From Parcubacteria group bacterium GW2011_GWC1_36_108 (GTDB lineage Bacteria; Patescibacteriota; Minisyncoccia; Moranbacterales; GWC2-37-73), in NCBI GenBank assembly GCA_000991245.1, contig LBRD01000003.1, positions 6,734-70,733 of the forward strand: a DNA stretch of 64,000 nucleotides. The letters are read 5' to 3'. A program made the translations under genes and the position numbers. This document shows, piece after piece, positions 5,009 to 53,879 of this stretch. Positions within the stretch are counted from its first letter, which is position 1; every line of letters begins with the position of its first letter. The notes under the pieces are model-generated. The model did not search any database. It was given only the letters and a program-made list of their open reading frames with translations, and had not been told where the DNA came from.

Positions 5009-5092
5009 TGTCATTCCCGTGAAAACGGGAATCCAGGACTGAGCCTAACTTGCGCGCAAACCTGGATCCCGGATCTGCTGTCCGGGACGACA
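5009..5092. mobile_element. MITE-like palindromic element, TGTCATTCC family, copy 1
   Basis: tgtcattcccgtgaaaacgggaatccaggactgag...gtccgggacgaca. The 5' hairpin cccgtgaaaacggg is shared with copies at 40849, 50655 and 53810. Confidence 0.7.
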
Positions 5093-5106
5093 CGAGTACA
5101 TGTCGA

Positions 5107-5175
5107 TTTCTTAACGCTCATCACTCGTTTTTTGCCTACGTACTTCATATGGTGCAAAGGGATGCGGGATACAAG
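5107..5175. repeat. Repeat element C (tttcttaacgctcatcactcg...catatggtgcaaagggatgcgggatacaag)
   Basis: Head repeated at 6672-6728. Tail (ggtgcaaagg[g/a]atgcggga) repeated at 9441-9470. Confidence 0.6.
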
Positions 5176-5203
5176 ATATATAATTAGTATAATATTTTAA
5201 ATT

Positions 5204-6529
5204 ATGAAAATTGGAGTTATTGGAACTGGATATGTGGGTAGTGTGACAGGAGCTTGTTTTGCGGAAATGGGGAACACTGTTATTTGCGTGGACAATGATC
5301 AAAAAAAAGTTGATCAGTTTTCTTCTGGCAAAGTTCCACTTCACGAAAAAGGTTTGGATGAATTGGTTTCTCGAAATTTGAAAAACAAAACTTTGACATT
5401 CACGACTGATCTTGAAGATACTTTGAAAAAATCTGACATTATTTTTATCGCTGTTGGGACACCTCCAAATGAAGATGGAAGCGCCGACCTTTCTCACGTG
5501 CTTGGCGTGGCAACCTCAATCGGGCAAATGATGGATCATAAACTTATCATCGTGGACAAATCAACTGTGCCGGTTGGAACTGCTGAAAAAGTTTCCAAAA
5601 ATATCGCTAAAGAGCTTAAGGATAGAGGGGTCGAGATTCCTTTTTCCGTGGTTAGTAATCCCGAGTTTTTGGCGCAAGGAACTGCTGTCAAAGATTTCTT
5701 GGAACCGAGTCGTATTGTTATTGGCGCAGATGATCCAAAAGTAATTGAAACGATGCGCGAACTGTATGAACCTTTTATGCGTCGTGAAGGACGTTTCTTT
5801 TCAATGGATGCAAAAACAGCCGAGATTGTGAAATATGCTTCAAACTGTTTCTTGGCTGCCAAAATTTCTGTGAACAATGAGTTGGCAAACATTTGCTCAA
5901 AGGCAGGAGCTGATTTTGACAATGTGCGCAAAGCGATGGGCGCCGATCCGCGCATTGGAGAACCTTTTATGTATGCGGGTCCCGGTTTTGGTGGATCTTG
6001 TTTTCCAAAAGATGTGAAAGCACTTGTCAAAACAGCCAAGGATTTTGGATATGACGCTGAAATGTTGAAACAAACACTGGGAACAAACGACAAGCAAAAA
6101 TTTGTGTTGTCTCAAATGGTTATTGATGAGCTTGGGGAGGATTTGAAAAACAAAGTTTTTGGTGTTTGGGGATTGGCTTTCAAAGCGGGAACTGATGATA
6201 TGCGCGAATCTTCAGCGCTTACTATTATCAGTGAACTCATCAAAAGAGGAGCCAAAATTCAAGCGCACGATCCAGAAGCAATGAAAATGGCGCAGCGCGA
6301 GGAATATTTTGGCGAAAATTCAAGCATTACATATTTTGAAAATAAATATGATGCACTTAAGGAAGCGGATGCGATGCTTGTTATTACTGAATGGAAAGAA
6401 TTTCGCACACCAGATTTTGATGAGATTAAAAAACTTTTGAAAACTCCTATGATTTTTGATGGCAGGCTTTTGTATGAACCCAAGAAAATGAAAGAAATGG
6501 GATTTGATTATAAATCGATAGGAAGATAA
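5204..6529 (+). CDS. ugd: UDP-glucose 6-dehydrogenase (UDP-glucose/GDP-mannose dehydrogenase family)
   Basis: N-terminal Rossmann MKIGVIGTGYVGSVTGACFAEMG, catalytic region GGSCFPKD, C-terminal UDP-binding domain. 441 aa. Confidence 0.9.
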   Translation: MKIGVIGTGYVGSVTGACFAEMGNTVICVDNDQKKVDQFSSGKVPLHEKGLDELVSRNLKNKTLTFTTDLEDTLKKSDIIFIAVGTPPNEDGSADLSHVLGVATSIGQMMDHKLIIVDKSTVPVGTAEKVSKNIAKELKDRGVEIPFSVVSNPEFLAQGTAVKDFLEPSRIVIGADDPKVIETMRELYEPFMRREGRFFSMDAKTAEIVKYASNCFLAAKISVNNELANICSKAGADFDNVRKAMGADPRIGEPFMYAGPGFGGSCFPKDVKALVKTAKDFGYDAEMLKQTLGTNDKQKFVLSQMVIDELGEDLKNKVFGVWGLAFKAGTDDMRESSALTIISELIKRGAKIQAHDPEAMKMAQREEYFGENSSITYFENKYDALKEADAMLVITEWKEFRTPDFDEIKKLLKTPMIFDGRLLYEPKKMKEMGFDYKSIGR

Positions 6530-6735
6530 ACTCATTTCCACATTTCTTTTTCCCGCAAAAAGAAACCTGGAGGAAAGAAAAGCTCGCACCTGATGAAGAT
6601 ACTGTGGCAAAAACTTCACTCTTCACTAAAATTTCTAACCGCCTCCGTCATTTTTGAAAATGACTCCGCGAAGAAATTTCTTAACGCTCATCACTCGTTT
6701 TTCGCCTATGTACTTCATATGGTGCAGATAGGCTC
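6530..6735. repeat. Composite repeat D + C-head downstream of ugd; contains terminator-like hairpin tttctttttCCCGCaaaaagaaa
   Basis: actcatttccacatttctttttcccgcaaaaagaaacctggaggaaagaaaagctcgcacc[t/g]gatgaagatactgtggcaaaaacttc... is repeated at 9341-9440 and truncated at 38945-38975. ORF 6593..6841 starts inside the repeat and is rejected. Confidence 0.65.
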
Positions 6736-6823
6736 AAAAAAATACAAACAGTTGCAGAATTTGAATGCAAATAAAAAAGACTTAGCGGGTTTTCTCGCTA
6801 AGCCTTTTGTTTATGTTAGGTCA

Positions 6824-7490: not shown

Positions 7491-7657
7491 CGTATTACCC
7501 CCTAAGTTTTTAAAGTGCATGGGCACTTTTTGGTATTTCAGCTATTATACACCTAAACGGGCAACGTGTCAATATGGGCGCCATTTTGCCCGCCTGCAAC
7601 GCTGTAGCACTGCGGGCAGGCCCTTGAGAAAGCGGAGAAAAGGTGGTAGGATGTAAT

Positions 7658-7785
7658 AGTTCATAAAGTTTTTAAAGTTCTTAAGGTTTATAAAGTAAAA
7701 TGCAAAAAGTTGTAAGGTTTTTAAGGTTTGTAAAGTTTATAATGTAAAATACAAAAAACTCCAAAGTTTATAAAGTTCATAAGGT
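7658..7785. repeat. YATAAAGTT nonamer array, copy 2 (longest; divergent intergenic region)
   Basis: gttcataaagtttttaaagttcttaaggtttataaagt...gtttataaagttcataaggt. About 12 degenerate units in the same orientation. Confidence 0.6.
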
Positions 7786-7793
7786 AAAACAAA

Positions 7794-8144
7794 ATGGCGA
7801 AATTTGAGACATTTGAAGATATTGTTGCTTGGCAAAAATCAAGAATTCTTGTAACTGATATTTATCAAGTATTCAGAAGCAGCAAGGACTATTCTTTTCG
7901 AGATCAAATACAGAGAGCTGCAGTTTCAATTATGAATAATATCGCCGAAGGTTATGAAAGAAAAGGAAATAAGGAATTTGCAAAGTTTTTATATATAGCA
8001 AAAGGTTCTTGCGCAGAGGTTCGTTCAATGCTTTATCTCGCTCTAGATTTAAGATATATTAATAGGGAAGAATTTAATAACTTTTCTGAACAATCACTTG
8101 TAATTTCTAAGATGTTATCAAGTCTCATAAAAACATTGTGTTAG
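7794..8144 (+). CDS. Four-helix-bundle protein (23S rRNA IVS protein family), second copy
   Basis: IAEGYERKGNKEFAKFLYIAKGSCAEVRSMLYLALDLRYI. 116 aa. Paralog of 500..865. Confidence 0.85.
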   Translation: MAKFETFEDIVAWQKSRILVTDIYQVFRSSKDYSFRDQIQRAAVSIMNNIAEGYERKGNKEFAKFLYIAKGSCAEVRSMLYLALDLRYINREEFNNFSEQSLVISKMLSSLIKTLC

Positions 8145-8172
8145 GGACTTTAAAAACTTTAAGAACTATACT

Positions 8173-9340: not shown

Positions 9341-9470
9341 ACTCATTTCCACATTTCTTTTTCCCGCAAAAAGAAACCTGGAGGAAAGAAAAGCTCGCAC
9401 CGGATGAAGATACTGTGGCAAAAACTTCGTTCTTCACTAAAATTGGTGCAAAGGAATGCGGGATGCGGAA
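9341..9470. repeat. Repeat D (second copy) + C-tail, downstream of GT4 gene
   Basis: Near-identical to 6530-6640 with 3 substitutions. Has the same hairpin tttctttttcccgcaaaaagaaa. Confidence 0.65.
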
Positions 9471-15550: not shown

Positions 15551-17344
15551 ATGAATAATCCAATAGATAAAGAGTCTTTGAAGTCTTTGGTTGGGAGCAG
15601 ATTTTTTGTTGGAGCAATCTTGATTGCGATTTTGGCAGTTGGTGTTTTTTTGCGCGCATATAACTTTTCTGACTGGCAACATTTTGAACTTGATCAATCT
15701 CGCGATGCAAAGGTTATAGATTTGGCGGTGGAAAACGGAGTGGGGGATCTTCCTCTTTTGGGACCAAAGGCAGCGGGGTCATTTTTGCGTCTCGGTCCAA
15801 TATTTTATTATTTCGGTTATGTGAGCGCAAAAGTATTTGGTAACACGCCTTCTGGGATTGCTGTCATTTCACTCATTTTTTCTTGTTTAACGCTGCCCCT
15901 GTTTTATTTGTTTGTCAGAAGATTTTTTTCAAAAAAAATAGGACTTATGCTTCTAGGAGTTTTTTCCGTTTCAATTTTTCTTGTTCTGTACTCACGTTTT
16001 TCATGGAATCCTAATAATTTGCCATTTTTCATTTTGGGTGCACTTTATGGTCTCCTTCGTGCAACGGATGAGAATGAAAAAAGAAAAGGCTGGTGGTTGA
16101 TTGTAGGAGTTGTTTCTTTGACTATTGCAACTCAACTTCACTTTGTGGCTTTTTTGGGCTTGCCGATGATTGCCGTCGCGTATCTTCTAATAAAAAGACC
16201 TTTAATAAACTGGAAATATTGGCTGGCTTCTATCGCATGCATTGTTTTTTTGTATATTCCTTCGATAATAAATGATTTCAAGACAGGTGGTTCAAATATT
16301 ATTGAATTTGAAAAAGTGTTCGCAAAAACATCCACCAAGGGCGAGCATACTCTTGTTGAAAAAATAATAAGAAACATCGACAAGAGTTCGGCTGGATATG
16401 TCTTGCTGATAAGTGGAAATTCACAGGCCGAATTGCCAAAGGTGAAGATTCCAAGAATACGACCAATTTTTACATGTGATGAGGATTGCAAAAAAGGTGT
16501 CCCAATGGGAATTTTTTCACTATTCTTTGCTATTATTGGAAGTGCACTTTTGGGTTGGAATATTTTCAAAACAAAAGAAACTTCGCGCAGAGATTTTTTG
16601 ATCATCGTGGCTATTTGGGTATTGGTTACGCTGGCACTTTTTACTCCGATTTCATATGATATGGCTCCAAGATTCTTTCTGCTGGTTGCTCCGATCCCAT
16701 TTGTTTATTTGGGGCTTATTTTGGATTTTTTTGAAAAAAGAAAAGCCAGTGTTCTTTCTTGGGTTTTCGTTTTGATTCTCTTGGCTTCAAATGGCTGGCT
16801 TGTTAAAGAAAGATTTAGCGAACTTGCAAATGCTCCCGTTAAAGAATTTGAGATATCTTCGGACAAAATTCTCAAAGAAAACGAACGAGTAACCCTTGAG
16901 CAACAGCTTCTGATTACCAAATATATTGAAAGTATTTATAATCAAAACAACTTTCCAGTTTATGTTAATAGTGAGGCATTTTATCGCAGATCATTTTTGT
17001 ATCATCTGGAACAACGTTTGATAGTTCGCGATGATTTTCGCAATACCAGAAGTGTTTATTCTGAGGGAAATTATTTTTTGGTGTATCCATCTTCTTCAAC
17101 TGTGGAAAAAATTTATGAAAATTATCAGGATAAATATGATATTGCTGAAATCAAGGAATTTGGCACGCTTAGAGTTGTGCGCTTGCTTCCAAAATTGCAA
17201 ATGATAACAGCGGTGCGTCAGGAATTTGCTCCAGCAAGAAAACCAATCAGCGCTCCTGGCGTGCCAGTGCGTTGTCGTTGGAATGAAATTTTTTCCCAAT
17301 GTAATAGTGACGGAACGGAGGCGGAGGATGAAAGTAGTTTATAA
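15551..17344 (+). CDS. ArnT/PMT-like GT-C glycosyltransferase (family 39/83-like)
   Basis: FLRAYNFSDWQHFELDQSRD...LLGPKAAGSFLRLGPIFYY parallels the N-terminus of 10433..13147. 597 aa, polytopic. Confidence 0.7.
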   Translation: MNNPIDKESLKSLVGSRFFVGAILIAILAVGVFLRAYNFSDWQHFELDQSRDAKVIDLAVENGVGDLPLLGPKAAGSFLRLGPIFYYFGYVSAKVFGNTPSGIAVISLIFSCLTLPLFYLFVRRFFSKKIGLMLLGVFSVSIFLVLYSRFSWNPNNLPFFILGALYGLLRATDENEKRKGWWLIVGVVSLTIATQLHFVAFLGLPMIAVAYLLIKRPLINWKYWLASIACIVFLYIPSIINDFKTGGSNIIEFEKVFAKTSTKGEHTLVEKIIRNIDKSSAGYVLLISGNSQAELPKVKIPRIRPIFTCDEDCKKGVPMGIFSLFFAIIGSALLGWNIFKTKETSRRDFLIIVAIWVLVTLALFTPISYDMAPRFFLLVAPIPFVYLGLILDFFEKRKASVLSWVFVLILLASNGWLVKERFSELANAPVKEFEISSDKILKENERVTLEQQLLITKYIESIYNQNNFPVYVNSEAFYRRSFLYHLEQRLIVRDDFRNTRSVYSEGNYFLVYPSSSTVEKIYENYQDKYDIAEIKEFGTLRVVRLLPKLQMITAVRQEFAPARKPISAPGVPVRCRWNEIFSQCNSDGTEAEDESSL

Positions 17345-17392
17345 AGTTTGTAAAGTTATAAAGTTCATAAAGTTTATAAAGTTCATAAAGTT
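17338..17392. repeat. YATAAAGTT nonamer array, copy 3
   Basis: gtttataaagtttgtaaagttataaagttcataaagtttataaagttcataaagtt runs up to 8 nt before the ATG at 17400. Confidence 0.6.
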
Positions 17393-17399
17393 AAAAAAT

Positions 17400-18926
17400 A
17401 TGAAAAAGACATTTCTTATCTTGTTTGCCATCATAATTCTGGGTGCTTTTTTGCGCTTTTATAAATTGGGAGAACTTTCTTTTGTGGCGGATGAATTTTT
17501 GGATATGAATTCTTCCTATGCTTATGCTCAAACTGGAACTTGGCAATCCTGGGATTTTAATCGTGGAGTTGTTAATGTGGAAAATGAATTTGCACCGCGC
17601 GATGAAAGAGCATGGCCATATAAGATTCAAGTTGCCAAACTGTTTGGTTTTTTTGCTCCGACTGAAGAGGTGGCAAGGAGTATTAGTGCGGTGTGGGGAA
17701 TCTTGAGTATTATCCTAATTTTTTTCGTGGCAAAATATTTTACTAGGAAAAATTCAATCGGACTTCTCAGTGCATTTTTGTTTGCAATAAGTGTCAGCGG
17801 AATCATTTTTGACAGACGTCTTCGAATGTATGCAATGTTCTTCCCATTTTTTCTGCTTTTCTCTTGGTTGACGTATAAATTTTTTGAGGAATCTTATGGA
17901 GGCAAGCTCAGGGTTTTTAAATATGTAAATGAAAAAATAGGTGTAAATTTGAAATATATCCTGCCAATGCTTCTGTCAGGATCGATGAGTCTGAAGATTC
18001 ATGATTTGACGGTCAGTATGGTTGCTATCTTTACTACATATGTCTTTATTATGACAACCAAGACTTTCTTGGAAAAAAAGACATTCATTTGGAATAAATA
18101 TTCTGTGACATTAAGCGTTGTCTTGGTCGCTGCTGCAGGAATTTTTACTTTTGCATCTGAAAAGATTGGAATGTATGCAGCTGGTATAAAATTTTTCAAC
18201 GACAATTTTAGTTATTTTTCAATAGTTACTTCGGACTATAGCCATCCATTGTTGGCACTTTTGTTTTTTGTTGCCGGTATTTATTATCTGGCGGTGCATA
18301 AAAAACTTTCCAAGGAGGGAATATGGCTGGCAGTTTCTTTTTTGGTTCCGCTTTTAATGGCAGTATTTTTGTGGAGGAGAAATGCGGGCGCCCAATATAT
18401 TTTCTTTGCTCAGTCTTTTGCTATTATCTTGATTGCATCTGGTGTTTACGGTGCAGCAAAATTTTTCAAAAATAATCTCGAGACTTTTTCTGCAAAAAAA
18501 GTATATTTCGTGACCATTGCCTTATCTCTGATGCTTTTGCCAAACTACGCATATTTTTTTCAGGAGAACAACGCTTACAGCCAGACTTCAGCAGCTGAAA
18601 ATCCGAATTATCGAAGCATCTTCACATATTTCAAGAAGAAAAAAATCGATGGCGATGTTCTGATAACAAGAAATTTTCGAAACTATTATTGGAGTGGACA
18701 AAATGTGAAAGTGATTGACTTTGGTGGGGAATTGGCTGAAGAAAAATTTTCATTAGCCCAACTTACAAATGTCGTGAATGAAAATAAGACAGGTTGGGTA
18801 ATTCTTTCCGACAATGATGACCGCTACATTTCAAATGAGGCTTCTGTTTATATGCAAGAAAATATGACCAAGATAAATGATATTGCAGTGCGAGGAAACG
18901 TGCTGGTTTACAGATGGGGGATGTAA
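17400..18926 (+). CDS. ArnT/PMT-like GT-C glycosyltransferase (family 39-like), fourth paralog
   Basis: Start set to MKKTFLILFAIIILGAFLRFYKLGELSFVADEFLD. ORF 17226 begins inside the nonamer array. Polytopic, 508 aa. Confidence 0.65.
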   Translation: MKKTFLILFAIIILGAFLRFYKLGELSFVADEFLDMNSSYAYAQTGTWQSWDFNRGVVNVENEFAPRDERAWPYKIQVAKLFGFFAPTEEVARSISAVWGILSIILIFFVAKYFTRKNSIGLLSAFLFAISVSGIIFDRRLRMYAMFFPFFLLFSWLTYKFFEESYGGKLRVFKYVNEKIGVNLKYILPMLLSGSMSLKIHDLTVSMVAIFTTYVFIMTTKTFLEKKTFIWNKYSVTLSVVLVAAAGIFTFASEKIGMYAAGIKFFNDNFSYFSIVTSDYSHPLLALLFFVAGIYYLAVHKKLSKEGIWLAVSFLVPLLMAVFLWRRNAGAQYIFFAQSFAIILIASGVYGAAKFFKNNLETFSAKKVYFVTIALSLMLLPNYAYFFQENNAYSQTSAAENPNYRSIFTYFKKKKIDGDVLITRNFRNYYWSGQNVKVIDFGGELAEEKFSLAQLTNVVNENKTGWVILSDNDDRYISNEASVYMQENMTKINDIAVRGNVLVYRWGM

Positions 18927-20583: not shown

Positions 20584-20717
20584 CGAAGATGAAAAATTTT
20601 AAATGTCAAAATTAAAATTTCAAATAAATGACTAAATATTTAATTTATTAAAAAATATTTTTATCATTAAGGAATTTGAAATTTATTTGATATTTGTAAT
20701 TTTTAATTTGAAATTAT

Positions 20718-21305
20718 TTATGCTATCTGGGATTTTATAATGCTAAATATTTCTTCTTTATCTTTATTGCCGTCTACTATTTTTAAATTCCAGACAGTTG
20801 CTGCTTGGTCGAGAAGCGCTTTTTTCTTGTTTAAATATTCCAATCCTTGATCTGGCACGCGGTCACGTTGCATTATTTTTTCTGGAGAGGTGTTGAGATA
20901 AAAAGCAAAATCGGGAGTAGGAATTAGGTGGTAGGAATTAGGTGGTAGGGGGGAATTTTGAAGGTATAAAATATTAATAATGTTGTCGTAGAAATAGCGG
21001 TCGGAAAGAATGTAGTCGTAGCCGGAGTTACGTAGCTTGTTACGTAGCAAAACAAAACGCAGCAGGTCAATGTGCAGCGCAACTTTGCGCAGTTGGATTT
21101 GCAGCCAACCAGCCTTTGTTACACTTTTTGTTTCCTGTTGACCGTTGATTGTTGATTGTTGATTGTTAAGAACATTGGCGATTGAAAACTGGACAGCGTG
21201 AAAATAAAAAACTTTCTTGCCTTGTGATTCAAGATAATTTTTCAATAAATTTATTTGGGTCGATTTGCCGCTGCCGTCTAAACCTGAGATTGAAATTATT
21301 TTCAC
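20718..21305 (-). CDS. tmk: Thymidylate kinase-like (d)NMP kinase with low-complexity insertions
   Basis: P-loop SGLDGSGKSTQ, DRY motif LSDRYFYD. In-frame tandem duplications are visible in DNA (ggaattaggtggtag x2; gttgatt x4 encoding NNQQSTINGQQ). Confidence 0.6.
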   Translation of the reverse strand: MKIISISGLDGSGKSTQINLLKNYLESQGKKVFYFHAVQFSIANVLNNQQSTINGQQETKSVTKAGWLQIQLRKVALHIDLLRFVLLRNKLRNSGYDYILSDRYFYDNIINILYLQNSPLPPNSYHLIPTPDFAFYLNTSPEKIMQRDRVPDQGLEYLNKKKALLDQAATVWNLKIVDGNKDKEEIFSIIKSQIA

Positions 21306-21306
21306 A

Positions 21307-21390
21307 AAAGTTTATAAGGTTCATAAAGTTCTTAAGGTTCATAAAGTGTTTTTGTATTTACTTTATAAACTTTATAACTTTATAACTTTT
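21307..21390. repeat. YATAAAGTT nonamer array, copy 4, palindromic arrangement
   Basis: The left arm has ...ttcataaagt units. The right arm has actttataa units (reverse complement). Predicts a long imperfect hairpin between rtcB stop and tmk start. Confidence 0.6.
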
Positions 21391-21396
21391 TACTAT

Positions 21397-22896
21397 TTAG
21401 TACATTATTACTGCCACTGGTTGCATTTTGGCGACAATATGTGCGACGCCGTTGGCTTCAACTCCTTTGATCACTTCATCAATATTTTTATATTTGGCGC
21501 TGTCTTGGTTGATGACGATTGAGGACTGGGCATTGTAAAGTCTAACACCTTTTTCTTCCATTTTGGCAAAAAGTTCTTCCTTGTTGGAAATGCTTTTTTC
21601 GTTGTTGTTTTTTCCTTTGCCGGTTCCGTGTGGTGCAGAATAAAAACTTTGATCGTTTCTGTCAGTGCCGACACAGATGTATGCATCAGTGCTCATTGAA
21701 GAGGGGATAAATGCTGGTTCTCCTGTTTCTTTATAAATCGGATGGTGCGACATTTTTGCAGGACCAAAGGCGCGCGAAGTGTTGGAACGATGAATCATCA
21801 CATCTTTTCCGAAATGCTCCTCCTTGGTGATGGAAATGTGCGGCAGGTCATAAATTAAATCCATTTCAGGGTCGCGGCCGAGAATTTTTTTGATAGCCTG
21901 CGAAATGTTGTGCGTGATGACAGCTCGGTTGGCTGTTCCAAAATTGCTTGCAGCTGCTCGGGCGTTCATATACATTTCGCCATCTTCTCCGTTGGCATCA
22001 TATTTCAAAAGCGAATCATCTTTGGTCATATGCAGCTTTATTTTTTTCTGCATCTTTTTGTAAACATCTTTTTTGCGAGAACTGAATGTGAGGCGACCAA
22101 GCGCAACCATAAGAGCTTGCGAAAGATGTTCAGCTTTTTTGGCTGTGTGAGTATACATTGTGTATTGGCCAAGAATGCCACTTCCGGTGTGAATCATAAA
22201 AAGATATTGGCCCTTTTTAATTCCAAATTTTTCTGCCATCTCAGCATCAACAATGTCTCCAACTTTCATTAAGTCAAGAAAGTGATTGCCAGCAGCGCCA
22301 AGAACTCCCAATCGATATTTCGCAAAGTTTAAATATAGTTTCGGGATGACATCAAAAATATCTTGTCGGGTCATTTCTTTTTCAAAAAAACTTCCTCCAC
22401 TCTGGGTGTTTTCCAATTCATTTTTGGTGGTAATTCCAAGATGTTTGATGATGGCCTTTGTGCCTTGACGGCAGATGTCCACCACGACATTGAAGGGAAC
22501 TTTTGTGCCGACAAATTTCTTGGTGGGAACAACCGAAACTAATTCTTGAAATAGCTTATGAATTTCTTCCGGCGAAATGTTTTCATCGCTAAGATTTGTT
22601 TTGACAAGTCGCATTCCGCAATTAGGATCAGAGTCATTAACTTGCGGGAGAATATATTTTTCACTGGCGATTGTTGTGCCAGCAGCATTTTTTCTTCCTG
22701 GCTTGGAACAAACATCTGGCATAGCGACGGTGCTTCTAAAAAAAGTGTCTTTATTTGAAGCGATGTCTTCCACTTGAGAGAATGTTTCTTCTTCTGGCAA
22801 AAGATTTTGATTCATAAAAAAAAGTGCCGGCACAGACATTTTGTCGGTTTTAAATTCTTTTATGTTCTCAGAAAGTGATTTCGTTTCGTATTTCAT
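21397..22896 (-). CDS. rtcB: RtcB-family RNA 3'-phosphate ligase
   Basis: VAMPDVCSKPGRKNAAGT (PDxH-like metal site), GAAGNHFLDL (NHF), MIHTGSGILGQ, SAPHGTGK are RtcB motifs. 499 aa. Confidence 0.75.
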   Translation of the reverse strand: MKYETKSLSENIKEFKTDKMSVPALFFMNQNLLPEEETFSQVEDIASNKDTFFRSTVAMPDVCSKPGRKNAAGTTIASEKYILPQVNDSDPNCGMRLVKTNLSDENISPEEIHKLFQELVSVVPTKKFVGTKVPFNVVVDICRQGTKAIIKHLGITTKNELENTQSGGSFFEKEMTRQDIFDVIPKLYLNFAKYRLGVLGAAGNHFLDLMKVGDIVDAEMAEKFGIKKGQYLFMIHTGSGILGQYTMYTHTAKKAEHLSQALMVALGRLTFSSRKKDVYKKMQKKIKLHMTKDDSLLKYDANGEDGEMYMNARAAASNFGTANRAVITHNISQAIKKILGRDPEMDLIYDLPHISITKEEHFGKDVMIHRSNTSRAFGPAKMSHHPIYKETGEPAFIPSSMSTDAYICVGTDRNDQSFYSAPHGTGKGKNNNEKSISNKEELFAKMEEKGVRLYNAQSSIVINQDSAKYKNIDEVIKGVEANGVAHIVAKMQPVAVIMY

Positions 22897-24259: not shown

Positions 24260-24346
24260 TGTCATTCCGGACTTGATCCGGAATCCCGAGTTTTAGCTTA
24301 TAAGCCGTTCTGCTGCGAGAGATCCTGAAACAAGTTCAGGATGACA
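24260..24346. mobile_element. MITE-like element, TGTCATTCC family, copy 2
   Basis: tgtcattccggacttgatccggaatccc...ggatcctgaaacaagttcaggatgaca. The terminal hairpins are reverse complements of those in copies 4 and 5. Confidence 0.7.
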
Positions 24347-24356: not shown

Positions 24357-24710
24357 TTACAAACTCTTATATATTTCCTTAGTGTTTCCGTCACTTGTAA
24401 TAATCACGGTGATTTTTTTGTTTGTGATTCCATCAGAGGAAACGGGAATTGTTTTTTTTGCTCCGTTTGTAATCACGCTGTTGCCTTGGGTGACGCTGTC
24501 CTTGTCTGCCAAAATTTCCCAGTGAAAATTTGTACTGAGTGAATGATTTTCAATGGTAAAATTCAATGATTTGTCTTTAGGGTTTTCAAAATAAATCATC
24601 CACACATTTTTAGTGTTGATGTCTGCTTGTTTTCTTTCAACAAATGACAAAAAAACAAAACTTGTCAGGAGAAAAAAACTTGTTGCTAGGATGATGAGTT
24701 TATTGTTCAT
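24357..24710 (-). CDS. Small membrane-anchored/secreted hypothetical protein
   Basis: 117 aa, N-terminal TM helix LIILATSFFLLTSFVFLSFV. Flanked on both sides by MITE-like elements. Confidence 0.4.
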   Translation of the reverse strand: MNNKLIILATSFFLLTSFVFLSFVERKQADINTKNVWMIYFENPKDKSLNFTIENHSLSTNFHWEILADKDSVTQGNSVITNGAKKTIPVSSDGITNKKITVIITSDGNTKEIYKSL

Positions 24711-24724: not shown

Positions 24725-24841
24725 TGTCATCCTGAGCGAAATTGAGACTGATAAGTCGAAATGTAGTCGAAGGATCTGAGCCCAGATTTCTCGACTGCGC
24801 TAATCTTCCCCATGGTTAGATTAGCTTCGCTCGAAATGACA
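24725..24841. mobile_element. MITE-like element, TGTCATCC variant, copy 3
   Basis: tgtcatcctgagcgaa...ttcgctcgaaatgaca (16-bp terminal inverted repeat). Confidence 0.65.
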
Positions 24842-29016: not shown

Positions 29017-29247
29017 CTATTGTTTTTCGATTATTAATTTAGGATCAACACAATTGAGATCACATTTGGCATTCTGAGTTCCTTGTTTGATAAATTCTTT
29101 TGAACAATCGTTTAATTTCTGTTGACAAACAGATTTGCTTTCATTGAAATAATTCAAATTAACTTCATATCCAAAATAGGGAAGCGTGAAATATGCGACA
29201 ACTGCGATTCCTGCGAGCCAGATTGCAAATTTAATGAGATGAAACAT
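29017..29247 (-). CDS. Small membrane protein with Cys-rich C-terminus
   Basis: 76 aa, one TM helix, C-terminal CQQKLNDC...CDLNC. Start overlaps the stop of the GT2 gene (operonic). Confidence 0.45.
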   Translation of the reverse strand: MFHLIKFAIWLAGIAVVAYFTLPYFGYEVNLNYFNESKSVCQQKLNDCSKEFIKQGTQNAKCDLNCVDPKLIIEKQ

Positions 29248-29257
29248 AGAAAAGTCA

Positions 29258-29342
29258 AAAAGTTTTTAAGGTTCTTAAGGTTTTTAAAGTATAAGCAGGT
29301 GTATGCCTTATGAACTTTATAACTTTATGAACTTTATAACTT
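29258..29342. repeat. YATAAAGTT nonamer array, copy 5, palindromic
   Basis: agtttttaaggttcttaaggtttttaaagtataag / cttatgaactttataactttatgaactttataac. Confidence 0.6.
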
Positions 29343-29349
29343 GTTTTTA

Positions 29350-30633
29350 TTATCGTCCGATTCCTTTATAGATTATACCACGTTTTTGAATTTCAGCCTT
29401 ATCGAGACAATTTTTTCCGTCAGTGATAACTTTGATGTTATTTTGTACAAATTTTTCAACAGGAATATCAATAAATTCTTGATGATTGGTAGCAAGTAGG
29501 ACAGCTTCACTTTTTTCCAATAGATCATCAATATTCTTAGCACTTGACATTGCAGGTACGAAAGGATCAAAGGTAACAACCTTGGCTCCATTTTTTTCCA
29601 AAAGCTTAATCAGTTCAAATGAAGGACTTTCTCTGAGGTCTCCAACGTTGGCTTTGTATGATAATCCTAATACTCCAACAGTTGTTCCTTTGAGAGATTT
29701 TTCAATTTCATTAAGTTGATCTTGCAAAAGTTCGATTGTGTATTCCGGCATACTGTTGTTTATTTTTCTGGCAGCTCGCAAAAACACGTGGTCGAAATCG
29801 TTTTCTTTGGCTTTTTCAATTAGGTAATATGGATCAACTGGAATGCAGTGACCACCAACTCCGCAGCTTGGCCAGTGTGCCAAAAATGAAAACGGTTTGG
29901 TGGATGCACCTTTAATCACGTTGGTAACATCTATATCCATTCGCTCAAAAGACCTGGCCAACTCATTTACAAAGGCAATATTGATATCACGGAAAGAGTT
30001 TTCGGTAATTTTCACAGCTTCTGCTTCTCGGATTGTTGCCATTGGCATAATTGGGGCATCCACAATGCTTTCATAAAACTCTTGTGAACGTTTCAAGCCA
30101 ATTTCATCAAAAGATCCAACCACACGCGGAATGTTTGAAACATTCCATTTTGGATCGCCGGGATTAACACGCTCTGGGCAGTGTGAAATAAAAACATCCT
30201 TACCAACTTCATAGCCTGCTTTTTCAAAAATTGGTTTGACGACTTCCTCACTAACTCCGGGATTGACGGTTGATTCAAGAATGACAAGCGAACCCTTCTT
30301 CATATTCTTAGCAACCGTTTCTGATGCACTTATAACTGGACTAAGATCTGGAAAATATTTATCATCTACTGGGGTTGGAACACATATGATATGGATATCA
30401 CACTGCGACATTAATTTTGGATCGCTGAAAACGTTTATTTTGACCTTTGGTAAGAGTTCCTCTAAAAATTCCTCCTTAAAAGGGGATATGCCTTGCTTGA
30501 TTAAATCTAATTTTTTCTGGTCATTATCAAAACCATATACTTCGTAACCCTTATTTGCGGCAACTGCGGCTAATGGTAAGCCCACATACCCCATTCCAAC
30601 AACGCACACTACTGGTTTTTCATTTTGATTCAT
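29350..30633 (-). CDS. Nucleotide-sugar dehydrogenase (UDP-N-acetyl-D-mannosamine/UDP-GlcNAc 6-dehydrogenase-like, WecC/WbpA type)
   Basis: VVCVVGMGYVGLPLAAVAANKGYEVYGFD, GGHCIP, and C-terminal UDP-binding domain. 427 aa. Confidence 0.85.
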   Translation of the reverse strand: MNQNEKPVVCVVGMGYVGLPLAAVAANKGYEVYGFDNDQKKLDLIKQGISPFKEEFLEELLPKVKINVFSDPKLMSQCDIHIICVPTPVDDKYFPDLSPVISASETVAKNMKKGSLVILESTVNPGVSEEVVKPIFEKAGYEVGKDVFISHCPERVNPGDPKWNVSNIPRVVGSFDEIGLKRSQEFYESIVDAPIMPMATIREAEAVKITENSFRDINIAFVNELARSFERMDIDVTNVIKGASTKPFSFLAHWPSCGVGGHCIPVDPYYLIEKAKENDFDHVFLRAARKINNSMPEYTIELLQDQLNEIEKSLKGTTVGVLGLSYKANVGDLRESPSFELIKLLEKNGAKVVTFDPFVPAMSSAKNIDDLLEKSEAVLLATNHQEFIDIPVEKFVQNNIKVITDGKNCLDKAEIQKRGIIYKGIGR

Positions 30634-37442: not shown

Positions 37443-37573
37443 TTAGGACTTACGCATTTTCTCAACGATTTCTTTTTTGGCACGTTTTTGACCCAAGACT
37501 ATGGTTAAAAACTCAAAGAATTGCTGTCGCAATAATTGGCTAAAAAAGAAATGTTTCGAAATGCGTAACCTCT
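37443..37573. mobile_element. 130-bp palindromic repeat element (MITE-B), copy 1
   Basis: ttaggacttacgcattttctcaacgatttcttttttggc ... gccaaaaaagaaatgtttcgaaatgcgtaacctc. The whole element can fold as one long hairpin. ~90% identical to 49102-49234. Confidence 0.65.
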
Positions 37574-37594
37574 AAGTATTACAAAATTAATAAT

Positions 37595-38881: not shown

Positions 38882-38944
38882 ATAAGTTACTTGTTTTGTA
38901 AGAGATAAAAACACTCAGTTTCAACTGAGTGTTTTGCGTTTCAA

Positions 38945-38975
38945 ACTCATTTCCACATTTCTTTTTCCCGTAAGC
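38945..38975. repeat. Truncated copy of repeat D
   Basis: actcatttccacatttctttttcccg then diverges. Confidence 0.5.
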
Positions 38976-40848: not shown

Positions 40849-40930
40849 TGTCATTCCCGTGAAAACGGGAATCCAGGACTGAGTCTGACTGAAGAGCTAA
40901 ACTGGATCCTGAAACAAGTTCAGGATGACA
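40849..40930. mobile_element. MITE-like element, TGTCATTCC family, copy 4 (between fmt and def)
   Basis: tgtcattcccgtgaaaacgggaatccaggactgag...ggatcctgaaacaagttcaggatgaca. Confidence 0.7.
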
Positions 40931-41444: not shown

Positions 41445-42263
41445 TTAAAATGGGCTTTTGATGTTTCTAAGCATTGGATTAGTTACTTTCGTGTATATCT
41501 GTGTTGTTCTTATATTAGCATGTCCAAGCAATTCTTGTACATATCGCACATCAACCCCATTTTCAAGCAGATGAGTGGCAAAAGAATGTCTAAGTGAGTG
41601 AAAAGTGGCTTCTTTTTGAACCTCAGCTTTTTGCAGAGCATTTTCAAAAACTTTTTGTGCGCTACGCTCATCTAATTTTCCTCCGCGATTACTGGCAAAA
41701 ACATAATCATTTAAATCTCTAAGCGCAATCATATTAAGCAATTGTGGTTTCAATTTTTCTGAAATTACACTTATTCTATCCTTGTTTCCTTTAGCTCCTT
41801 TTATATGAATTGTTAATTCGTCTAAATTGATGTCTTTAATCTTTAAATTTATTGCTTCACTGACGCGAAAACCTGCGCCATAGGAAAGGGAAATGAGCAG
41901 CTTATGTTTCGGATTGCTTATGGAATCAATCATTCTTCCAATCTCATCCCTAGAAAGTACTACGGGCAATTTGCTGGCAGTTTTGGCAAATTTGATATCA
42001 ATTTCAATATTATTTTTAAAAACTTCTCTATAAAAGTATTTAATAGCTTGAAGATGCACATTCATCGTCTGTGAGGATTGTCCACGAGCTTGTTTTTCTA
42101 ATAAATATTTCTTAATTACTTCAATTTCCGGTTCGCGCTTAATAATTTTAATGTATTTGAAATATTCATTCAGACAAGACAAATAACTCTCAATTGTCCT
42201 TGGACTGTAATTTCGAAGTTTCAGTTCGTTTTTGATTTTTTCCAGCAACTCTTGGAGATTCAT
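41445..42263 (-). CDS. Xer-type tyrosine site-specific recombinase (272 aa; lacks the integron-integrase additional domain)
   Basis: Catalytic residues. R in LSYGAGFRVSEAINLKIKDI. KGAKGNKDRISVISEKL. HSLRHSFATHLLENGVDVRYVQELLGHANIRTTQIYTKV (H-x-x-R ... Y). Only ~45 aa lie between patch III and HSLRHSF, so there is no room for the IntI-specific domain. Transcribed divergently from the downstream cassette-like array. Confidence 0.85.
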   Translation of the reverse strand: MNLQELLEKIKNELKLRNYSPRTIESYLSCLNEYFKYIKIIKREPEIEVIKKYLLEKQARGQSSQTMNVHLQAIKYFYREVFKNNIEIDIKFAKTASKLPVVLSRDEIGRMIDSISNPKHKLLISLSYGAGFRVSEAINLKIKDINLDELTIHIKGAKGNKDRISVISEKLKPQLLNMIALRDLNDYVFASNRGGKLDERSAQKVFENALQKAEVQKEATFHSLRHSFATHLLENGVDVRYVQELLGHANIRTTQIYTKVTNPMLRNIKSPF

Positions 42264-49101: not shown

Positions 49102-49234
49102 TTAGGACTTACGCACTTTCTCAACGATTTCTTTTTTGGCACGCTTTTGGATAAATACTCACTATCCAAAAACTCAAAGAGTCGCTGTCGCCAACAATTG
49201 GCCAAAAAAGAAATGTTTCGAAATGCGTAACTTC
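49102..49234. mobile_element. 130-bp palindromic repeat element (MITE-B), copy 2
   Basis: ~90% identical to 37443-37573. A partial inverted copy lies at 2468-2545. Confidence 0.65.
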
Positions 49235-49326
49235 TGAATTTGTTTATTTTACCAGTAGGGGATGGTAAAAGCAAAGATGTTATTCAAAAAGGTTGATTTA
49301 ACGCTAAAAGCTGTTATAATAGGGCA

Positions 49327-49866
49327 ATGCAAAAGAAAAAAATATTTGTTGAAATAGAGGTTCCCGGACAGTTAAAAAGACGGTTGGCTCAGATTATAGC
49401 CAAGTGGTCTGATTTGCCGATCAAATGGATGAAAGAGGAAAATTTGCACATCACTGTGTCTTTTGTGGGATATGTTGATGAAAGCGTGCTGCCTGAAATT
49501 TGTCAAAAAGTCAGAGTGGCTGTGGAAAACTTTGAAGCTTTTGATTTGGAATTTGACCGCATCGAACTTGGACCAAATCCTGCTGATCCCAAAACAGTTT
49601 GGCTCACGGGACAGCCTTGCAGTGAGCTTGGCGTGCTTAATGAACAAGTCGAGCGAGCTCTTGGAATGAGACCGGAAACACACAAGGAATTTCGACCGCA
49701 CATCACGCTGGGGCGCATTCGCAAGCTGAAATGGGATGAACTTGTCGAAAAGCCTGAAATTTCTGAGAAAATTAATGTTTCAATGACGGTGGACAGTCTT
49801 TCGATTATGGAAAGTAAAGGCGGGGGAGCGGAATATGTTTCGTTGGAAGAATGTTCGCTGGCGTAA
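49327..49866 (+). CDS. thpR: RNA 2',3'-cyclic phosphodiesterase (2H phosphoesterase, LigT/ThpR family)
   Basis: Two H-x-T/S-x motifs: HITVSF and HITLGR. 179 aa. Confidence 0.8.
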   Translation: MQKKKIFVEIEVPGQLKRRLAQIIAKWSDLPIKWMKEENLHITVSFVGYVDESVLPEICQKVRVAVENFEAFDLEFDRIELGPNPADPKTVWLTGQPCSELGVLNEQVERALGMRPETHKEFRPHITLGRIRKLKWDELVEKPEISEKINVSMTVDSLSIMESKGGGAEYVSLEECSLA

Positions 49867-49869
49867 AAT

Positions 49870-49906
49870 AGTTCGTAAGGTTATAAGGTTTGTAAAGTTC
49901 ATAAAG
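49870..49906. repeat. YATAAAGTT nonamer array, copy 6
   Basis: gttcgtaaggttataaggtttgtaaagttcataaagt ends 2 nt before the tagA ATG. Confidence 0.55.
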
Positions 49907-49908
49907 TA

Positions 49909-50646
49909 ATGCAGATACTTGGTGTGAGGATTGATAATTTTTCTAAAAAAGAAATTCTTGAAAAAATAGAATTTTTTTTGAATGAAGAAAATCTTCATCA
50001 AATTGCTACTGTTAATCCGGAGTTTATTTTGAGAGCTCAAAAAGATTTGGAATTTAAAAATATTTTGAATAAATCTGATTTGAATGTGGCTGATGGCGTT
50101 GGAATTTGGTATGCATTTTTGAGGTATGGGGGTCGCCTTAAAAACAGAATCGCGGGAGTTGATCTGATGGATATGATACTTAAAATGGCAGATGAAAAAA
50201 ACCTCAGTTTGTTTTTGGCAATACATAAAAATGGTTTGAGCTCGTTTGATGAGATTAAAAAGGTTTTAAATGAAAAATATCCCAACATTGAAGTTTTTGG
50301 TGGAGATATTGATTCTCGAAGGAATAAAAAGATTATACCTAATGTTGATCAGACATTAGTCCTGTGCAACTTTGGTTTTCCGGCGCAGGAAAAATTTATA
50401 AATTTACTCAAAAACAAACAAAATTCAAGCTTGCAGTTAAATAGCTGTCGGGGTAAAATAAGATTGGCTATAGGAGTTGGTGGCAGTTTTGATTTTGTCA
50501 CTGGAAAAATTTCGCGCGCTCCACATTGGATGCAAAAAATTGGTTTAGAATGGCTATGGAGATTTGCTCAAGAGCCAAAATATAGATTTAAAAGAATTAT
50601 AAACGCAGTTATTGTTTTTCCGATTAGAGTTTTGTTTAATAAGTAG
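49909..50646 (+). CDS. tagA: WecB/TagA/CpsF-family glycosyltransferase (GT26; UDP-ManNAc transferase-like)
   Basis: MQILGVRIDNFSKKEILEKIEFFL...ATVNPEFILRAQKDLEFKNILNKSDLNVADGVGIWYAF is typical of TagA/WecG. Confidence 0.85.
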   Translation: MQILGVRIDNFSKKEILEKIEFFLNEENLHQIATVNPEFILRAQKDLEFKNILNKSDLNVADGVGIWYAFLRYGGRLKNRIAGVDLMDMILKMADEKNLSLFLAIHKNGLSSFDEIKKVLNEKYPNIEVFGGDIDSRRNKKIIPNVDQTLVLCNFGFPAQEKFINLLKNKQNSSLQLNSCRGKIRLAIGVGGSFDFVTGKISRAPHWMQKIGLEWLWRFAQEPKYRFKRIINAVIVFPIRVLFNK

Positions 50647-50654
50647 TTAAAAAA

Positions 50655-50736
50655 TGTCATTCCCGTGAAAACGGGAATCCAGAACCGAGTCTAGCTGAAG
50701 AGCTAAACTAGATTCCGGATCAAGTCCGGAATGACA
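50655..50736. mobile_element. MITE-like element, TGTCATTCC family, copy 5
   Basis: tgtcattcccgtgaaaacgggaatccagaaccgag...ggattccggatcaagtccggaatgaca. The 3' end is the reverse complement of copy 2's 5' end. Confidence 0.7.
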
Positions 50737-50743
50737 ATGAAAT

Positions 50744-52291: not shown

Positions 52292-52300
52292 AACTCGTAG

Positions 52301-53668
52301 GTGGATATGAAAATCAATATAAAACAAAAAAAGAAATATATAAGTTTGTTTTTAATTGCAGCGCTTGGCGTTGGAATATCTTTTTTGTTTTGGCAAAATA
52401 TTAAAGCTGAAACTGATAGCATTGAAAATGAGATTACTGAGGCGCAAGAAGAAACGCAGGAAAAAATAGAGGAATTGGAAAAACGCGCGGATGTCTATCG
52501 CGAGATTATTGATATTAAAAAGAAGCAAGGCGAAACATTGAACAATCAGTTGGCTATAACTGATACTAGTATTCAACAGGTTCAAGCTCAAATAGAAGTC
52601 AGCAAACAACAAATTGATGATTATAACAGCCAAATAACACGCATTGAAGCGCAAATCAAAGAAAAGAGTGAAACAATTTTGTCACAGAAAGAAATGTTGG
52701 CAAATTTGATGCAAGCATATTATGAAGTGAATTTGGCAAGTCCAATTGTTTCATATTTAACTAGTGGTAACATCGCTTCTTTTATTGTTGAAAAAGACAG
52801 GCTTTCGCAGACTGGGGATAAAATCAAGGATTTGGTTGTTTCCGTTAAGGAAATTAGGGATGATCTTGAGGTTCAAAGCAAAGAACTTGATAAGAAAAAA
52901 GGAGAATTCGTGGTAACAAAAGAAAAATTGCAGAATCAAGGTTCTACTCTTGAGTCTGCAAAAAAACAAAAAGAAACTTTGCTAGCACAAACAAAGGGCG
53001 AAGAAGCACGCTATGCACAACTTCTTGAACGTGTTGAACAGCAAAAACAAGATTTGTTGAATATGGATCAACTCTTCTTGAGTGGAAATTTTAGTGTTGG
53101 TGGGCTTTCAGCAGATGAATATATTAAAAAAAATACGCCACCTTCATCAGTATTTGCTTCAACCAGTTGGTTTTTTTCTCAGAAAGATCCAAAATGGGCT
53201 GATGTGAATATTGGAAACTCAACTAGTGATATGAAAAACTGGGGATGCGCAGTGACTTCAGTTGCAATGGTTGCAAAATTTTATGGCGATAGTAAAATAA
53301 CCCCTGGAATATTGGCAAAAAAACCGATTTTTTCATTTGACCTTATGAAATGGCAAATGAATGAATGGTCAGATGCCAAAATAACACTTGTGGATACATA
53401 TGGGTCATCACATAGAAATTTGAGTTGGACAGCAATTGATTCACTTGTGAAAAACAAACAACCCGTAATTGTTTATATTGGAAAATCAGGTGGAAAAGGT
53501 GGTCACTATGTGGTTATTCATACGAAAGAATCTAAAACAGGGAAGTATGTTGTTCATGATCCATATTTTGGTGCTAATTTATATTTGGACACTTCTCGCG
53601 CTTTAGTTGGTGCTATGGGTACAAGCACAAGCACATATCTTGATCAAATGATTGTGTATAATGATTAG
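52301..53668 (+). CDS. Membrane-anchored coiled-coil protein with C-terminal peptidase C39-like (papain-fold) domain
   Basis: TM helix, ~250-aa coiled coil (EnvC-like), then KNWGCAVTSVAMVAKFYG ... GGHYVVIHTKES (Cys/His catalytic pair). Confidence 0.5.
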   Translation: MDMKINIKQKKKYISLFLIAALGVGISFLFWQNIKAETDSIENEITEAQEETQEKIEELEKRADVYREIIDIKKKQGETLNNQLAITDTSIQQVQAQIEVSKQQIDDYNSQITRIEAQIKEKSETILSQKEMLANLMQAYYEVNLASPIVSYLTSGNIASFIVEKDRLSQTGDKIKDLVVSVKEIRDDLEVQSKELDKKKGEFVVTKEKLQNQGSTLESAKKQKETLLAQTKGEEARYAQLLERVEQQKQDLLNMDQLFLSGNFSVGGLSADEYIKKNTPPSSVFASTSWFFSQKDPKWADVNIGNSTSDMKNWGCAVTSVAMVAKFYGDSKITPGILAKKPIFSFDLMKWQMNEWSDAKITLVDTYGSSHRNLSWTAIDSLVKNKQPVIVYIGKSGGKGGHYVVIHTKESKTGKYVVHDPYFGANLYLDTSRALVGAMGTSTSTYLDQMIVYND

Positions 53669-53809
53669 AAATGCAGCTTATTTTTTGTAGCCAAACTAAA
53701 CATATAAATTATTTTGTATTTATATGTTTTTATTTTTTATATACAAAGGGGTTGTGCGACATTAAAAAGGGCGGACCAATCTTAGTAGAGGATTGTTATT
53801 TATCGCCGC

Positions 53810-53879
53810 TGTCATTCCCGTAAAAACGGAAATCTGGAACTAGGCATCACTCTGGATCCCAGTTAAGCCGAAGATGACA
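53810..53879. mobile_element. MITE-like element, TGTCATTCC family, copy 6 (degenerate)
   Basis: tgtcattcccgtaaaaacggaaatctggaac...agccgaagatgaca. Confidence 0.55.

Follow-up and report, generated by a model that had tools for sequence, protein, structure and literature searches.

The Neisseria repeat NTS, CGTCATTCCCGCGMAVGCGGGAATCYRG, contains the older dRS3 repeat and is bound and nicked, solely as single-stranded DNA (ssDNA), by SsnA, a GIY-YIG protein of ~100 amino acids; the GTC before its palindrome is needed for cutting and the C after the palindrome for binding (Nat Commun 2025, PMC11893778). That paper also describes a degenerate Ssn-related motif (SRM) that covers such hairpins in many phyla, and ssn genes that are typically flanked by hairpins in a layout resembling that of an insertion sequence (IS). 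The present analysis concerns six palindromic elements (c1 to c6) in a 64,000-nucleotide stretch of Parcubacteria group bacterium GW2011_GWC1_36_108 (contig LBRD01000003.1, positions 6,734 to 70,733; this whole stretch is called the window below), a member of the candidate phyla radiation (CPR). Judged from motif, frame, covariation and the gene association of the motif variant, the elements belong to the SRM/NTS class, and they are probably gene-less relatives of units in which the hairpins enclose an ssn gene.

The kind of repeat is itself already known and the host is new: the finding is no new kind of system, and it widens the host range of the Ssn-motif repeat class to a CPR bacterium, a group for which neither the accessible text of the 2025 Ssn paper nor a wider literature search gave a case. 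It also means that certain intergenic palindromes can be named as a class and assigned a biochemical partner open to testing; gene callers otherwise render these palindromes as spurious small open reading frames (ORFs), as in one assembly in which a 44-aa product runs across c4.

Six inverted hairpin pairs and their ends

The six elements were located as the initial annotation had placed them, all of them between genes and mostly just downstream of a gene. Five of the six stand between co-directional genes, 8-10 nt past the upstream stop codon; c1, for example, starts 8 nt after the stop of a GT2 gene (4059-5000) and c5 starts 8 nt after the stop of a WecG-type glycosyltransferase gene. The gap to the next start codon in these five co-directional cases is 7-28 nt, with 111 nt for c1. 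The 3' end of c5 lies 7 nt ahead of the gltX ATG, the end of c2 lies 10 nt ahead of the GT1 ATG, and c2 occupies a 107-nt spacer between ORF117 (stop at 24357) and the GT1 gene (start at 24249). According to Pfam assignments, c4 is placed between def and fmt.

All six elements start with TGTCAT and five end with ATGACA, the end of c1 being ACGACA. The core between the two end modules of c1 is variable, and the left stem of the decayed element c6 is mismatched, with 79% identity to the left end of c1. The modularity proposed in the initial annotation proved real, although its two alternative ends were too few: at least six end types (A-F; Table 1) were distinguished among the six elements. They share a frame which, read from the outside inward, consists of TGTCA, a T-Y-C stem, a loop, the returning G-R-A stem and TC-YNRG. 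Eleven of the 12 ends follow the order (T)GTC(A/G)T, stem, loop, stem and ATC, i.e., they have the oriented, non-palindromic flanks required of an SRM, and ten of the 12 are either perfect 7-bp hairpins or longer hairpins of the E/F type.

The ends are far more frequent and more structured than chance would give. TGTCATYCY occurs 12 times in the window against an expectation of 2.0, a count that none of 100 shuffles reached. A structural scan defined by GTCRT, a perfect stem of at least 5 bp and TC, and blind to the sequence of the stem, returned 10 matches against 0.67±0.74 in shuffles, and eight of these ten are element ends. The predicted fold of a whole element is a closing TGTC/GACA stem with three hairpins, and its z-scores range from -3 to -9 with RNA parameters and from -3.2 to -7.5 with DNA parameters (-4.8 and -4.6, respectively, for c1; -9.2 and -7.5 for c3), c6 being the exception at about -1.

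The identity of the ends was given by comparison with the Neisseria motif. The published SRM expression, HGTCWYN(0-2)YYVSBRHN(0-5)WNVSBRGN(0-2)RNCYNB (PMC11893778), matches the window exactly at 5009, 40849 and 50655, which are the module A ends of c1, c4 and c5; these are its three matches in the window, where 0.045 were expected (200 shuffles). Module A is equivalent to the NTS with a different loop (TGAAAA vs GCGMAVGC), and it retains the positions that are critical in the NTS, namely the GTC that precedes the palindrome and the C that directly follows it. It also fits the dRS3 consensus, ATTCCC-N8-GGGAAT, perfectly, whereas the partner ends B, C and D do not. The other modules, B to F, share the frame but lie outside the SRM regular expression. 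On these sequence comparisons the element ends are Ssn-related hairpin motifs of the NTS/dRS3 class and not generic terminal inverted repeats.

Pairing within the hairpins was also found where the search pattern did not force it. Among eight distinct 26-mers of the B/C class, Watson-Crick pairs occupy 23 of the 24 pair positions that vary, and in the E/F class of viral contigs the YYY and RRR triplets are complementary in 38 of 41 cases. The hairpin structure itself is thus selected for. Retained copies give a similar picture. The ortholog of c5 in GW2011_GWD2_38_11 (L169) is identical at 77 of 82 positions (94%), as against 83% and 76% in the coding flanks; two of the five differences form a compensatory pair in the right stem (CCGGATCAAGTCCGG to CCGGGTCAAGCCCGG), and another restores ATCCAG/CTGGAT pairing. 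In the c4 ortholog of the same genome (L146) the left module and core are identical at 58 of 60 positions (97%), vs 80% and 78% in the coding flanks, and the right module has been exchanged for a different, longer hairpin.

Nuclease-bearing counterparts and turnover of the gene-less pairs

One exact variant of the motif is widely distributed. A scan of species-representative genomes located the exact 31-mer TGTCATTCCCGTGAAAACGGGAATCCAGRAC in 85 stretches from more than 10 phyla, its hosts including Thermodesulfobacteriota, Verrucomicrobiota, Planctomycetes, Omnitrophota, Ignavibacteria, Dehalococcoidia, Nitrospirota, Alpha- and Gammaproteobacteria and several CPR lineages. Most of these stretches are gene-less inverted pairs of 58-115 bp. 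At the far end, 36 of 58 distinct sequences have a perfect hairpin, built on one of seven different 7-bp stems within a constant frame. In viral contigs, GTCATTCCCG-N6-CGGGAATCC was found in more than 120 stretches among the matches listed, where fewer than one was expected, and the E/F hairpin class was found in 34 viral contigs.

The same hairpin also accompanies a nuclease gene. Module A (GTCATTCCCGTRAAAACGGGAATCC) is followed 40-70 nt downstream by codons for NGTLY in 99 metagenome contigs. The intact frames in this set start ~10-25 nt after the hairpin and encode a GIY-YIG protein of ~95-105 amino acids, two of which were run against Pfam and matched PF01541 (GIY-YIG); some of the 99 frames are truncated or frameshifted. 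An inverted hairpin follows 4-29 nt past the stop codon in 49 of 67 complete units, and some of these post-stop hairpins are module B save for one stem base pair. A representative unit (L388) reads TGTCATTCCCGTGAAAACGGGAATCCAG-aagaaat-ATG … TAA-atact-GGATTCCCGTTTTCACGGGAATGACA.

As far as sequence can tell, the window elements are both ends of a hairpin-ssn-hairpin unit minus the gene, and stand to it as a miniature inverted-repeat transposable element (MITE) stands to an insertion sequence. The initial annotation had called the family MITE-like, modular and non-autonomous. That description was upheld, the family being dispersed and there being no transposase or nuclease partner in the window, and needs amendment in one respect: the full-length counterpart carries a gene for a GIY-YIG ssDNA nuclease and not for a DDE transposase.

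A separate observation concerns the Thermodesulfobacteriota metagenome-assembled genome (MAG) Yes70-18, which contains at least seven copies of a ~250-bp MITE (L131 6759-7048, L132, L157, L166, L195, L203, L184 and L192). This MITE is bounded by terminal repeats of its own (CTGATCGTGTCC…GGATCAG), shows a ~9-bp duplication, is sited in CCCCC…GGGGG palindromes and holds an internal A-type hairpin pair; the pair has therefore also been multiplied by hitch-hiking.

Turnover of the gene-less pairs was followed at orthologous spacers. The operon GT4-DUF6541-ORF117-GT1-RtcB-Tmk is syntenic in four relatives (L294 to L297), whose ORF117 proteins are 87%, 69%, 62% and 61% identical, respectively, to that of the window. 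Its spacers differ among these genomes (Table 1), and c3 is missing from the orthologous spacer in all four relatives (spacers of 9-65 nt). The c1 site in a closer strain (L217) is taken by a member of another repeat family. A c1-like copy with 80 nt of flank is present in GW2011_GWE2_36_40 (L139), at a locus that 9-bp periodic repeats occupy in the window; window positions 5007-5173 are 91% identical to L139 2696-2863, which is a non-orthologous site. Insertion polymorphism between related genomes is thus present, with spacers empty, filled or differently filled (L294-L297, L217, L139), and gene-less pairs are gained, lost or swapped at short operon spacers between related Moranbacteria. The initial annotation had reasoned that copies restricted to this locus and free of presence/absence polymorphism would be local structured spacers; copies were instead found on other contigs of relatives, with both presence/absence and replacement.

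This turnover left no target-site duplication in the window. The flanks of c1 to c6 share no direct repeat in any of the six copies, so that the target-site duplications for which the initial annotation had proposed a check are lacking; an ATTTCTT repeat at the c1 site is part of a neighbouring repeat family.

The ~80-nt flank of c1, TTAACGCTCATCACTCGTTTTTTGCCTACGTACTTCATATGGTGCAAAGGGATGCGGGATACA, has a distribution of its own. This conserved module (5100-5180 of the window) also occurs without c1-type elements and has no Rfam match; window positions 5106-5180 recur in L183 (2225-2299) and in L217, and a further copy lies at L139 2775-2863.

A second repeat family was noted at some of the same sites. 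It starts with AAACTCATTTCCACATTTCTTTTTCCCGCAAAAAGAAACCTGGAGG and is located at 6530-6633, 9341-9444 and 38943-38973 of the window, and elsewhere at ~6976-7283 of L217, 2086-2181 of L183 and ~2675-2695 of L139. It replaces c1 in one strain, and its start precedes the c1-like copy in GW2011_GWE2_36_40.

The gene between c3 and c2 (ORF117, 24357-24710) was considered as an ssn gene or as cargo and rejected as either. The two elements do bracket it, as had been described, but it has no Pfam domain, its synteny is kept in the four relatives and it is a conserved Moranbacteria gene, with 108 homologues that apparently occur in Moranbacteria only; the flanking spacers are empty in relatives.

Table 1. 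Elements, end modules and associated flank in the window, and contents of the operon spacers in the window and in four relatives (L294 to L297)
Feature	Position in window	Composition, sequence or spacer content in window	L294	L295	L296	L297
c1	5009..5092	inverted hairpin pair: module A 5009-5036 (top strand), module D 5062-5092 (bottom strand)				
c2	24260..24346	inverted pair: module B 24260-24288, module C 24318-24346 (bottom strand)				
c3	24725..24841	inverted pair, long E/F class: E ~24725-24780, F ~24785-24841 (bottom strand)				
c4	40849..40930	inverted pair: module A 40849-40876, module C 40902-40930 (bottom strand)				
c5	50655..50736	inverted pair: module A 50655-50682, module B 50708-50736 (bottom strand)				
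c6	53810..53879	decayed: left end a mutated module A, TGTCATTCCCGTAAAAACGGAAATCTGG; right end keeps ATGACA, without stem				
Module A	left ends of c1, c4, c5; decayed in c6	TGTCATTCCCGTGAAAACGGGAATCCAG				
Module B	c2 left, c5 right	TGTCATTCCGGACTTGATCCGGAATC				
Module C	c2 right, c4 right	TGTCATCCTGAACTTGTTTCAGGATC				
Module D	c1 right	TGTCGTCCCGGACAGCAGATCCGGGATCCAGG				
Modules E, F	both ends of c3	GTCAT-YYY-GAGCGAA-(insert)-GTCGA-RRR-ATC				
c1 flank	5093..5180 (~80 nt)	copied together with c1-type elements; part of a larger composite repeat				
GT4→DUF6541 spacer		60 nt, no pair	A + B-like pair	5 nt	157 nt, other AT-rich repeats	16 nt
DUF6541→ORF117 spacer		c3 in 140 nt	65 nt, no pair	52 nt, no pair	9 nt	28 nt
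ORF117→GT1 spacer		c2 (C + B)	different pair, c1-like core	31 nt, empty	173 nt, other AT-rich repeats	157 nt, other AT-rich repeats

A proposed mechanism and the rival explanations

The explanation that we consider probable is that c1 to c6 are gene-less, non-autonomous miniatures of hairpin-ssn-hairpin units. Each element would consist of two SRM hairpins (5'-(T/C)GTCAT, stem, loop, stem, ATC-3') inverted around a short variable core. Once replication, repair or DNA uptake leaves the DNA single-stranded, each strand would extrude one forward motif at its own 5' end of the element, and an Ssn-type GIY-YIG nuclease acting in trans would bind the hairpin and nick the strand a few nucleotides 5' of GTCAT, as its Neisseria counterpart SsnA suggests. 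Because each strand shows one forward motif at its 5' end, the two strands would be cut at opposite ends of the element. Cuts so placed could drive excision, copying or local recombination, by analogy with IS200/IS605 and REP/RAYT. Recognition of the window elements by an Ssn nuclease is here extrapolated from the published biochemistry.

A stronger version is tentative: hairpin-ssn-hairpin units may be true mobile elements, with the ~100-aa GIY-YIG nuclease as their 'transposase' and the gene-less pairs as their MITEs, which we regard as possible rather than probable. If it is true, the units cross phyla, an identical 31-mer being found from Thermodesulfobacteriota to CPR bacteria, and the pairs survive in ultra-small Moranbacteria genomes that lack a resident nuclease. 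Such persistence could come about through seeding and mobilisation in trans, e.g., by DNA uptake from neighbour or host cells, or alternatively through co-option of the pairs as conserved structures inside operons.

Several observations weigh against the derivation from ssn units and should be set beside it. A search by tblastn and by a profile built from four real GIY-YIG genes found no GIY-YIG gene in the window, in 10 kb beyond each of its ends or in the related Moranbacteria loci; among all the loci retrieved, the only matches were the four viral contigs from which the profile had been built, which shows that the profile works. Exact 31-mers number only one to three per Moranbacteria representative genome, and ssn-linked genomes are reported to carry hundreds of motif copies (PMC11893778). 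The nearest named homologues of the low-GC Ssn proteins belong to Omnitrophota, Kiritimatiellae, Latescibacterota and Dadabacteria. Neither modules B and C nor the E/F hairpins were found beside GIY-YIG genes in the viral collection in which this was looked for, which counts against the derivation for C and for E/F, though such a small collection gives the result little weight. Part of the apparent movement is the copying of a larger composite, c1 with its 80 nt, which ordinary recombination could yield. Retained copies that are 94-97% identical beside coding sequence at 76-83% fit host function or homogenisation better than a purely selfish element. Finally, transposition by an Ssn nuclease is not known to have been demonstrated, and the Ssn paper puts it forward only as a hypothesis (PMC11893778).

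Other results of the partner search were neutral. No CPR names appeared among the best 120 in two protein searches that each returned more than 8000 family members, a result that is uninformative rather than negative; the phyla of the top Ssn homologues overlap those that bear the 31-mer. The metagenome contigs with low-GC ssn genes have no convincing similarity to Moranbacteria loci, and no solved structure was found for these nucleases. No transposase was present among the window genes or in the rest of the ~84 kb of this genome that was covered, and the precomputed Pfam lists for the window genes gave no Y1 transposase.

An alternative that is compatible with the derivation from ssn units, and which as an explanation in itself we consider rather unlikely, is that the pairs are structures of polycistronic mRNAs kept by the host, in the manner of REP and BIME, their origin from Ssn motifs being incidental. 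The transcribed, cloverleaf-like fold would shield the upstream cistron from 3' exonucleases, or would act as a processing or translation-coupling signal. The location of five of the six elements close after a stop codon and between co-directional genes, with c4 inside def-fmt, speaks for it, as do RNA folds predicted to be strongly non-random and orthologous copies that exceed their coding flanks in conservation and carry compensatory changes; the Northern-verified Francisella small RNA FtrB, moreover, contains an SRM hairpin. However, the same hairpins recur in every context and phylum, including beside nuclease genes, and the same operon does without c3 in four relatives and without c2 in some. 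Two imperfect stems (the closing stem of c1, and ATCCAG/CTAGAT in c5) would also give A·C mismatches on the transcribed strand, and G·U pairs on the non-transcribed strand.

The remaining alternatives treat the hairpins as targets, ends or stops. That dRS3-type hairpins serve as integration targets of mobile elements is improbable here. Module A does hold a perfect dRS3 consensus, dRS3 is a known integration target, a module or a whole element was swapped between unchanged flanks at two spacers, and a gene for a tyrosine recombinase (41445-42263) is located just past def, at ~0.5 kb from c4; but no hairpin in the window is interrupted by an integrated element, the recombinase looks like an ordinary single-copy gene of XerC/D type with synteny kept across strains, and no gene of IS110 or Piv type was found in 84 kb (the window with its flanking contig). 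Classical MITEs, moved by a DDE transposase recognising TGTCAT…ATGACA termini, would share the inverted termini, the small size, the several copies and the lack of coding capacity, and the Thermodesulfobacteriota pair was indeed multiplied inside a true ~250-bp MITE. This reading is nonetheless largely refuted and has next to no remaining likelihood, given that target-site duplications are absent in six of six copies, that a GIY-YIG nuclease is the only gene repeatedly found between such ends, and that the ends vary in sequence but keep the hairpin, unlike the terminal repeats bound by transposases. Intrinsic terminators or insulators, the role that the initial annotation had thought probable, are suggested by G+C-rich hairpins just past stop codons; that role is very improbable, as no terminal hairpin carries a T-run in the direction of transcription (the last hairpins are followed by cgagtaca, aacactat, acaactac, atgtgaaa, atgaaata and atgtgcgc) and the elements lie within operons, c4 splitting def from fmt and c5 preceding gltX. 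The distances that separate c2 and c5 from the next start codon, moreover, leave no room for a new promoter. The elements are, in short, neither DDE-type MITEs nor intrinsic terminators.

Neighbouring features and comparison with known systems

The window matches, at 100% identity, a section of a 107.6-kb contig from a groundwater metagenome as well as NCBI MAG contigs. Its nearest named relative is Candidatus Moranbacteria GW2011_GWE2_36_40, at ~91% nucleotide identity, followed by Parcubacteria-group GW2011_GWD2_38_11 at ~80%. It has a G+C content of ~36% and carries mostly glycosyltransferase genes for envelope polysaccharides together with housekeeping genes. The window gave no Rfam match at the gathering threshold and no tRNA (ARAGORN). 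Two of its genes, 500-865 (-) and 7794-8144 (+), belong to PF05635 (23S_rRNA_IVP, four-helix-bundle proteins).

Strain-level differences were noted at two places. The NCBI MAG contig DOMA01000021 lacks 232 bp of the window (54217-54448), a strain-level indel. ANAN16-1 scaffold_336 lacks ~118 nt of the spacer between the NifU and cysteine desulfurase genes (window region 55546-55706), and past this indel its identity falls from 99.8% to 91%, which looks like a recombination breakpoint.

Three further kinds of repeat occur between the genes. The 9-bp periodic unit (T)AAAGTTNAT forms arrays in at least seven intergenic regions (3206-3249, 7637-7796, 17317-17407, 21290-21412, 29233-29362, 49866-49918 and 63248-63377); forward and reverse-complement arrays face each other at three sites (~21350, 29305 and 63310), and a single unit is present in an operon spacer of the relative L295. 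The largest array is directly upstream of the 23S_rRNA_IVP gene at 7794-8144. These arrays could be protein-binding or promoter-associated. A third dispersed repeat, of ~76-110 nt, is located at 2466-2541 (-), 49163-49238 (+) and 37530-37588 of the window and at 197-309 of L146 (GW2011_GWD2_38_11); two of the window copies are 99% identical and inverted, and the third is ~83-85% identical. The window also has a 36-nt AT-rich unit, CAAATTAAAAATTAAAAATATCAAATAAATTAAAAA, in two tandem copies at 418-489, and a related inverted copy lies 20 kb off, at 20589-20721.

Among known systems, the Francisella small RNA FtrB (Rfam RF02748) shares with the window elements an SRM hairpin, AGTCATTCCCGCGTAGGCGGGAATCTC, which lies in the published FtrB probe, and it is an abundant intergenic transcript of 115 nt; elements with SRM hairpins can, on its example, be stable transcripts. 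The FtrB model matches the window at 4994-5053 (+), over module A of c1, at 18.7 bits against a gathering threshold of 66 (E = 0.98), and sensitive Rfam runs over c1 and over c2 and c3 gave nothing beyond this chance-level match. Only the hairpin is shared, and the window elements are not members of RF02748.

The dRS3-RS-dRS3 units of the NIME arrays (PMC1797815) likewise have short variable cores bounded by inverted hairpin repeats, and are mosaic, modular and strain-variable at syntenic sites. They differ in forming long arrays by surface-antigen genes, where the units described here are solitary and lie in operon spacers, and in having dRS3 at both ends of an RS core of ~50-150 bp, whereas the second end here is usually not dRS3; NIME arrays are described as Neisseria-specific (PMC1797815). 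The REP/BIME-RAYT system, to which the Ssn authors draw the same analogy (PMC11893778), shares hairpin repeats that are recognised as ssDNA, often occur as inverted pairs in operon spacers and lack target-site duplications, and there, too, the repeats flank the gene of the cognate nuclease. It differs in the enzyme, which is of the HUH/Y1 kind and not GIY-YIG, RAYT being a relative of the IS200/IS605-type Y1 transposases, and in the 5' GTAG of REP, where the ends described here have GTCAT; neither a RAYT nor a TnpA gene is present in the window.

The closest likeness is to the SRM/NTS repeats and SsnA (PMC11893778). The shared features are a 28-nt hairpin in the same oriented frame, with GTCAT upstream and ATC-YRG downstream, the intergenic placement, and, in the metagenome units of this variant, the hairpin-gene-hairpin layout with a small single-domain GIY-YIG protein. 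The differences are the CPR host, the one to three exact 31-mers per related genome in place of hundreds, and cleavage that is here inferred. Four observations go beyond the published description: one exact motif variant is common to more than 10 phyla; this variant flanks ssn genes in the manner of IS ends; pairs without a gene come and go at orthologous operon spacers and leave no target-site duplication; and retained copies are more conserved than the adjoining genes. Together, the sharing of the variant, the IS-like layout, the duplication-free turnover and the conservation make the published hypothesis of present or past mobility of Ssn units directly testable, and modules A-F are ready substrates for mapping Ssn specificities, which is also of interest for ssDNA tools.

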